In this document: one piece after another, positions 1-328 of the stretch
Layout of the letters: every line of letters begins with the position of its first letter
How positions within the stretch are numbered: position 1 is the first letter of the stretch
Assembly (NCBI RefSeq): GCF_003334385.1
Contig: NZ_QOWN01000202.1
Source: Escherichia coli
GTDB taxonomy: Bacteria > Pseudomonadota > Gammaproteobacteria > Enterobacterales > Enterobacteriaceae
Strand: one strand, 5' to 3'
Length of the DNA: 328 bases
Position numbers and translations under genes: made by a program
The notes under the pieces: generated by a model
What the model was told of the DNA's origin: nothing
Databases searched by the model: none
What the model saw: the letters and a program-made list of their open reading frames with translations, nothing else

Positions 1-230
1 TGCACACCGGATTCCATCCCGCCATCGCGGGAACGCCGGGAAAGGACCACCACATTGCGGCGCAGTTTTCCCCTGCGTACCGGTGCCCGTGACACCACTT
101 CTTCTTTCAGCACATTCGCACCCGCACGGGTTGCCTCACGCAGCACCCGGTTATTTTCCGCACCACTCAGAAGCTGCAAATCACGGCTTATTTCTTCAAG
201 TCCCGAAAAATCCAGCAGGGTTTCGATCAT
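1..230 (-). CDS. Phage neck/tail-component protein, HK97 gp10-like family (putative); N-terminal 76 codons, gene continues past window position 1
   Basis: Seen in sequence: minus-strand ATG at 230-228 with a GGAGG core 6 nt upstream; the frame is open for 76 codons to the window edge. Codon choice is enterobacterial-like (ctg, gaa, gcg, gtg, cgt, ccg, aaa dominate). Translation: MIETLLDFSGLEEISRDLQLLSGAENNRVLREATRAGANVLKEEVVSRAPVRRGKLRRNVVVLSRRSRDGGMESGV. Family call is from memory: the 'GL-EL' N-terminus followed by an 'APV-x-G-LRR-' motif resembles the HK97 gp10-like family (Pfam PF04883, as I recall). No search was run. Confidence 0.78.
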   Translation of the reverse strand, partial: MIETLLDFSGLEEISRDLQLLSGAENNRVLREATRAGANVLKEEVVSRAPVRRGKLRRNVVVLSRRSRDGGMESGV

Positions 231-328
231 TTTTCCCCTCCCAGCCGACAAAGAATTTCCAGGCGCCCGCCGGTCGCATCCGGCACGGGCACCCCGACAA
301 CATTCAGGATACAGTCACGCCAGGGACC
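227..328 (-). CDS. C-terminal 33 codons of an upstream phage morphogenesis gene (possibly a head-closure/head-tail adaptor protein); 5' end lies beyond window position 328
   Basis: Seen in sequence: minus-strand frame open from position 328 to the TGA at 229-227, translating GPWRDCILNVVGVPVPDATGGRLEILCRLGGEK*. The stop overlaps the downstream ATG (ATGA), a typical coupled-gene junction. Codon usage is reasonable (ctg, ccg, gcg, ggc, gaa). The product guess is inference from the usual gene order in siphophage neck modules, not from recognisable sequence similarity. Confidence 0.5.
   Translation of the reverse strand, partial: GPWRDCILNVVGVPVPDATGGRLEILCRLGGEK
235..242 (-). promoter_or_regulatory. 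Shine-Dalgarno / ribosome-binding site for the gp10-like gene
   Basis: Seen in sequence: minus strand reads GGGAGGGG (plus-strand cccctccc at 235-242). The GGAGG core at 241-237 sits 6 nt upstream of the ATG at 230-228. The site lies inside the last codons (G-G-E-K) of the upstream gene. Confidence 0.6.

Follow-up and report, generated by a model that had tools for sequence, protein, structure and literature searches.

In phages SPP1 and HK97, the head closure proteins gp16 and gp7, respectively, form a ring below the adaptor, which retains the DNA and serves as docking site for the tail. The proteins of the Pfam 04883 superfamily, for which HK97 gp10 is the reference, are designated tail completion proteins, alias Ne1; further members of the Ne1 superfamily are SPP1 gp16.1, lambda gpZ, T5 p143, P2 gpS, and Mu gpG, and mutants are not viable (PMC11099176). 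In the case of SPP1, the lack of gp16.1 leads to poor joining of heads and tails, and the DNA is released outside the cell rather than into it (PMC11099176). The first structure of a tail completion protein within a virion is that of gp51 of phage 80alpha, one copy of which is lodged within the neck channel (bioRxiv 10.1101/2024.12.10.627806). The last base pair of the packaged DNA is stacked by residues Y78 and F81 of gp51, and, through a beta-hairpin, the protein pairs with three tape measure chains at their N-termini (bioRxiv 10.1101/2024.12.10.627806). The same authors point out that it has yet to be established where the tail completion protein is located in HK97-type virions, and that the HK97 adaptor is devoid of the beta-hairpin that holds gp51 in 80alpha (bioRxiv 10.1101/2024.12.10.627806). 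Here, we describe a short segment of Escherichia coli DNA in which a gene of the gp10 type adjoins a head closure gene, and we compare it with these systems.

The segment, referred to as the window in the following, is the whole stretch of 328 bases that was analyzed; its G+C content is 58.8%. The gp10-type gene is represented by half of its length and the head closure gene by a quarter (Table 1). The frame that starts with the ATG of the gp10-type gene contains no stop codon in its 76 codons and is translated as MIETLLDFSGLEEISRDLQLLSGAENNRVLREATRAGANVLKEEVVSRAPVRRGKLRRNVVVLSRRSRDGGMESGV. The strings FSGLEEISRDL and RAPVRRGKLRRNVVV, which the original prediction had pointed out in this 76-residue N-terminus, are both present in the translation. 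The second minus-strand frame is translated as GPWRDCILNVVGVPVPDATGGRLEILCRLGGEK, followed by the TGA stop codon. The GGAGG motif of the gp10-type gene is located within the end of the head closure gene and, judged by its agreement with the consensus, is a putative Shine-Dalgarno site. The closest relative among complete genomes is a locus on the chromosome of E. coli S1-KEN-03-A (termed L001), which is 99.1% identical to the window. The 4-base overlap of the head closure and gp10-type genes is also annotated in L001 (19784-20230 and 20227-20577), in phage YYZ-2008, and in HK97 (5545-5883 and 5880-6329), and an ATGA overlap of this kind is an arrangement typical of translationally coupled phage late genes. 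Other feature scans of the window gave little: Rfam returned no structured RNA at E-values up to 1 on either strand, and no promoter-like site was found. A terminator-like hairpin on the plus strand (171-189), which is antisense within the coding region and of a kind for which 0.3 occurrences are expected by chance, was treated as a chance match, as were the repeats, which consist only of two-copy matches of 10-12 nt.

Table 1 Features of the 328-base window
Feature	Position	Strand	Remarks
Tail completion gene, HK97 gp10 family (TCP / Neck1), 5' part	1..230	-	Codons 1-76 of 148; exits the window at base 1
Head closure gene, 3' end (Hc1; HK97 gp7 / SPP1 gp16 type)	227..328	-	Last 33 codons and TGA
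ATGA stop/start overlap	227..230	-	TGA 229..227 on ATG 230..228; read from the sequence
GGAGG, Shine-Dalgarno-like	237..241	-	6 nt upstream of the gp10-type ATG

The window differs from its best genome match at three bases. All three differences are synonymous third-position changes, and the full-length L001 proteins were therefore used as stand-ins for the truncated window products within the comparable parts. The relative of the gp10-type protein (L001:19787-20230, minus strand) has 148 residues and is identical to the window protein at residues 1-76. The 76-residue fragment itself is matched by PF04883 with an E-value of 5.5e-8 (model positions 2-59 of 78) and by the PHROGs profile phrog_5, 'tail completion or Neck1 protein', with an E-value of 1.6e-14; the full-length relative is matched by PF04883 over model positions 2-78 (E = 9.2e-10). 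TIGR01725, an NCBIfam model of the type 'equivalog' with a curated cut-off of 30.8 bits, assigns 82.5 bits to the full-length protein and 28.7 bits to the fragment, the latter being slightly below the cut-off as expected of a half-protein. HK97 gp10 (NP_037704.1; 149 amino acids compared to 148 in the relative) can be aligned end to end with the L001 protein, with 74% identity, i.e., 26% sequence difference, over 149 residues (E = 5e-84), and its gene likewise has the head closure gene on one side and the tail terminator gene on the other, the 4-base overlap being shared as well. The upstream head closure neighbor is seen in the window; the downstream tail terminator and major tail genes are seen in L001 and in a second annotated relative, L002, only. 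In every respect that could be tested, the gp10-type window gene thus agrees with the HK97 gp10 family, as originally predicted.

The coupled upstream reading frame had been proposed to be of the head closure or adaptor type, and it is a head closure gene. The L001 head closure protein has 116 residues and is identical to the window product across the 33 residues of the latter. It is matched by PF05521 with an E-value of 3.5e-16 over 104 of the 106 model positions, by TIGR01563 with 23.7 bits (cut-off 20.6), and by phrog_25, 'head closure Hc1', with an E-value of 4.3e-31; the 33-residue window fragment alone is matched by phrog_25 with an E-value of 2.8e-4. These three models place the upstream window gene in the Hc1 head closure family, and the name used in RefSeq is 'phage head closure protein'. 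The L001 protein is 44% identical to HK97 gp7 and matches the structure 2kz4, 'putative head-tail adaptor', from end to end (E = 1.9e-21); in the comparison with HK97 gp7, SPP1 gp16, and 2kz4, the window itself supplies the last 33 residues only. The head closure gene comes after the head-tail adaptor gene in L001, L002, and HK97.

By megablast, the window was matched in 1244 of 5426 complete E. coli genomes. The 2912 placements, up to eight per genome, are nearly all chromosomal, and the best identity is that of L001. In the matched genomes, the gp10-type gene carries the RefSeq name 'HK97-gp10 family putative phage morphogenesis protein'. In addition, 92 phage records match the window at about 90-96% identity. 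These phages are mostly long-tailed and Stx1a-, Stx2a-, or Stx2c-converting, and they also include YYZ-2008, 2851, 1717, and BP-4795. The genomic context was read from relatives which are 95-99% identical to the window, not from the flanks of the source itself. In L001, the genes follow each other on the same strand in the transcriptional order HNH endonuclease, small terminase, large terminase, major capsid, a small ORF, and portal; then, in the neck part, head-tail connector (adaptor), head closure, gp10-type, and tail terminator; and finally, in the tail part, major tail, two tail chaperones, tape measure, minor tail proteins, gpJ, Lom, and tail fibre. On the far side of the terminase genes lie those for the antiterminator, RusA, holin, and lysis. 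In YYZ-2008, the head, neck, and tail-shaft genes are arranged in this order too, up to the minor tail genes, and the neck order of HK97 (adaptor, head closure, gp10-type, tail terminator, major tail, chaperones, tape measure) matches that of L001 and YYZ-2008. HK97 differs in that the host element of the window genes is a larger, Stx-phage-like lambdoid prophage. The flanks of the closest relatives thus contain the terminase, capsid, portal, adaptor, tail terminator, major tail, chaperone, tape measure, and gpJ genes, and the placement in a tailed-phage neck cluster that was put forward originally is supported both by these flanks and by the matching phage and E. coli records. One label has to be refined, not reversed: the gp10-type protein is, strictly speaking, not a connector of the head side but a tail completion protein, which is attached to the tail.

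The identity and the order of the window genes are established, as is their operon context in near-identical relatives. Taken as a whole, the window is read as the place where two neighboring late genes meet in a lambdoid, long-tailed, HK97-type E. coli phage or prophage, and we assign a probability of roughly 0.93 to this reading.

Several other genes of the relatives deserve mention. The major capsid gene (L001:23706-25643; L002:11708-13645) comprises 1938 bp compared to 1158 bp in HK97, and the portal gene (L001:20910-23494; L002:8911-11496) about 2585 bp compared to 1275 bp. The presence of oversized capsid and portal genes beside HK97-like neck genes suggests that the head genes contain additional or fused domains. 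At the tail fibre end of L001 (1-8426), genes for an Ail/Lom family outer membrane protein (7827-8426), a YadA C-terminal domain adhesin-like protein (3866-5026), and an S6 family peptidase of the serine protease autotransporter type (1-3033) are located, which may be cargo or neighboring virulence genes. The interval between antiterminator and holin is the slot occupied by stx in related converting phages. In L001 (32390-39207), it contains genes for a DNA methyltransferase, tRNA-Ile, tRNA-Arg, a TolA-like protein, and a SASA family carbohydrate esterase, and no toxin gene is annotated in this interval.

The two genes could be correctly identified and nevertheless belong to a decayed, cryptic prophage, which no longer builds virions and persists as a remnant. 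This is possible, if rather doubtful, and it would leave the gene identities unchanged. Copies of the element can be defective, because the portal gene of L001 is annotated as frameshifted and the L001 lysozyme gene (30988-31521) contains an internal stop; the L001 copy may be unable to form or release particles. The multiple copies of the segment found in single genomes point in the same direction, and strains rich in lambdoid prophages commonly hold defective ones. Decay is not apparent in the window, however, as neither of the frames is interrupted and the divergence from relatives is largely synonymous, and the segment occurs at 95% identity in records deposited as Stx-converting phages.

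Phage-inducible islands and gene-transfer-agent-like clusters can carry HK97-type head and connector genes. An origin of the window from such a phage-derived element that is not a full prophage, for example a phage-inducible chromosomal island that forms capsids or a cluster resembling a gene transfer agent, with connector genes of its own, is nevertheless very unlikely: all annotated contexts inspected at 95-99% nucleotide identity are lambdoid phages or prophages of 40-60 kb, a complete tail module follows directly downstream in each of them, L001 also has lysis and antitermination genes, and a tail completion protein is without an obvious role where tail genes are absent.

A further consideration arises from phrog_23409 ('unknown function'), a profile of 264 positions which spans both proteins. 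Positions 1-98 lie on the head closure protein and positions 117-264 on the gp10-type protein, and the minus-strand gp10-type fragment is matched with an E-value of 1.2e-50. The gp10 frame is the -1 frame relative to the head closure gene (junction GGGGAAAAATGA). The number 264 is the sum of the two protein lengths (116 + 148). The same total results from 98 + 18 + 148, provided that AGCDRRAPGNSLSAGRGK is read in the gp10 frame following a -1 shift after Val98. That the head closure and gp10-type proteins are sometimes expressed as one fused protein by means of such a shift is highly improbable. No canonical slippery heptamer was seen in the head closure frame, and the cessation of the profile match to the head closure protein at residue 98 points to an indel in a few records, or to mistakes in their sequencing or annotation, rather than to a frameshift. 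When a constructed fusion protein was searched against the phage collection, each of the 25 top-ranking records was matched in two pieces, corresponding to two separate frames, and the fused frame was rejected. The profile looks as if it had been built from fused ORFs, probably because some records contain an indel or are wrongly annotated.

With regard to the coding strand, an open frame by itself is weak evidence, as 857 of 20,000 mononucleotide shuffles were also free of stops over the 76-codon frame. On the plus strand, frames 1 and 2 contain no stop in the whole window (109 codons) and remain open for 143 and 119 codons in L001. Since the plus frames are open as well and the open frame is only mildly unusual, the case for the genes rests on homology. 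The minus frames match families with E-values of 1e-14 to 1e-50, whereas the translations of the open plus frames 1 and 2 gave no PHROGs or NCBIfam family at E-values up to 1. The sense frame is open in all eight homologues compared (31-98% protein identity, 44-65% G+C), whereas their antisense frames are nearly all interrupted, by as many as 13 stops. Moreover, the genes of the L001 morphogenesis and lysis operon lie nearly all on the minus strand. Compared to YYZ-2008, 13 codons differ, nine of them synonymously; the ratio of synonymous to non-synonymous changes in the minus frames is 5:2 for the gp10 part and 4:2 for the other part, and the plus frame that shares the wobble position yields 6:2 for the gp10 part, which is as good as the minus frame. 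The synonymous-count test demonstrates constraint and does not discriminate between the strands. Plus-strand coding in frames 1 and 2, with the minus reading being incidental, was rejected for want of family matches and in view of the broken frames in homologues, and its probability is negligible; the open plus frames are most likely a by-product of the codon pattern of the sense strand.

On the preferred reading, i.e., two late genes of a lambdoid, long-tailed phage or prophage read from the minus strand, a role can be proposed for both products. Both genes would be transcribed within one long late operon, translation of the gp10-type gene being coupled via the ATGA overlap. The head closure protein, by comparison with its relatives, would form a ring below the adaptor, closing the DNA-filled head and accepting the tail. 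The gp10-type protein would be incorporated at the head-proximal end of the finished tail, as suggested by its relatives. After joining, it would occupy the neck channel, flanked on one side by the terminus of the packaged DNA and on the other by the N-termini of the tape measure protein. There, it would contribute to stable head-tail joining, to the routing of the DNA into the cell, and to infectivity.

This plug-and-link role of the E. coli gp10-type protein is modeled on 80alpha gp51 and SPP1 gp16.1, the two proteins of the family for which a place in the tail or neck and a need for infectivity are known. SPP1 gp16.1 is likened to it by superfamily and position as given in the literature, and SPP1 gp16.1 and lambda gpZ share with gp10-type proteins the position in the neck/tail module as well as the superfamily (PMC11099176), their loss resulting in non-infectious particles. 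A BLASTP comparison of lambda gpZ with the gp10-type protein revealed no detectable pairwise similarity (E = 13), and membership in a gpZ family was rejected; the equivalence to gpZ is positional and taken from the literature. With respect to 80alpha, a search with a profile of seven family members found the PDB chain 9mu2_P, 'HK97 gp10 family phage protein', with an E-value of 7.8e-5. Judged from the name of the chain and its length of 115 residues, 9mu2_P is probably 80alpha gp51. The match is carried by the conserved motif Y-x-x-F-x-E-x-G-T...PF, and only this C-terminal motif aligns significantly. In the L001 full-length protein, the motif Y-x-x-F-x-E-x-G-T ... P-F-x-R-P is present at residues 100-121, outside the window, which ends at residue 76. 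R104, E107, G109, T110, P117, F118, R120, and P121 are invariant in the seven sequences. Residues 78 (Y) and 81 (F) of 9mu2_P align with Y102 and F105 of the E. coli protein. On the assumption that 9mu2_P is gp51, the full-length E. coli protein and 80alpha gp51 share the profile match and, beyond the window, the motif with both DNA-capping aromatic residues; the gene position is equivalent as well. Headful packaging is a feature of 80alpha, and HK97 uses cos ends. In view of the reservations of the 80alpha authors about HK97-type virions, in which the adaptor is without the holding hairpin, the mechanism is transferred by analogy. A single-sequence search of the PDB with the gp10-type protein matched only the designed 'Bagel' beta-propeller repeats; the E-value is a sum over eight weak repeats with no single stretch being significant, and the match was dismissed as an artefact. 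In the profile search, FliG matched the helical N-terminal part of the protein with an E-value of 0.02, which was considered insignificant.

The two window genes are textbook neck components which are already known, and standard pipelines name both of them correctly. The feature is an ordinary one: the lambdoid prophage concerned is present in about a quarter of the complete E. coli genomes. The window can be assigned to a very common lambdoid prophage operon for morphogenesis, of a type that long-tailed Stx-converting phages have as well. Otherwise of little consequence, this assignment helps to annotate the genome of origin and to find cargo that the element may carry elsewhere.
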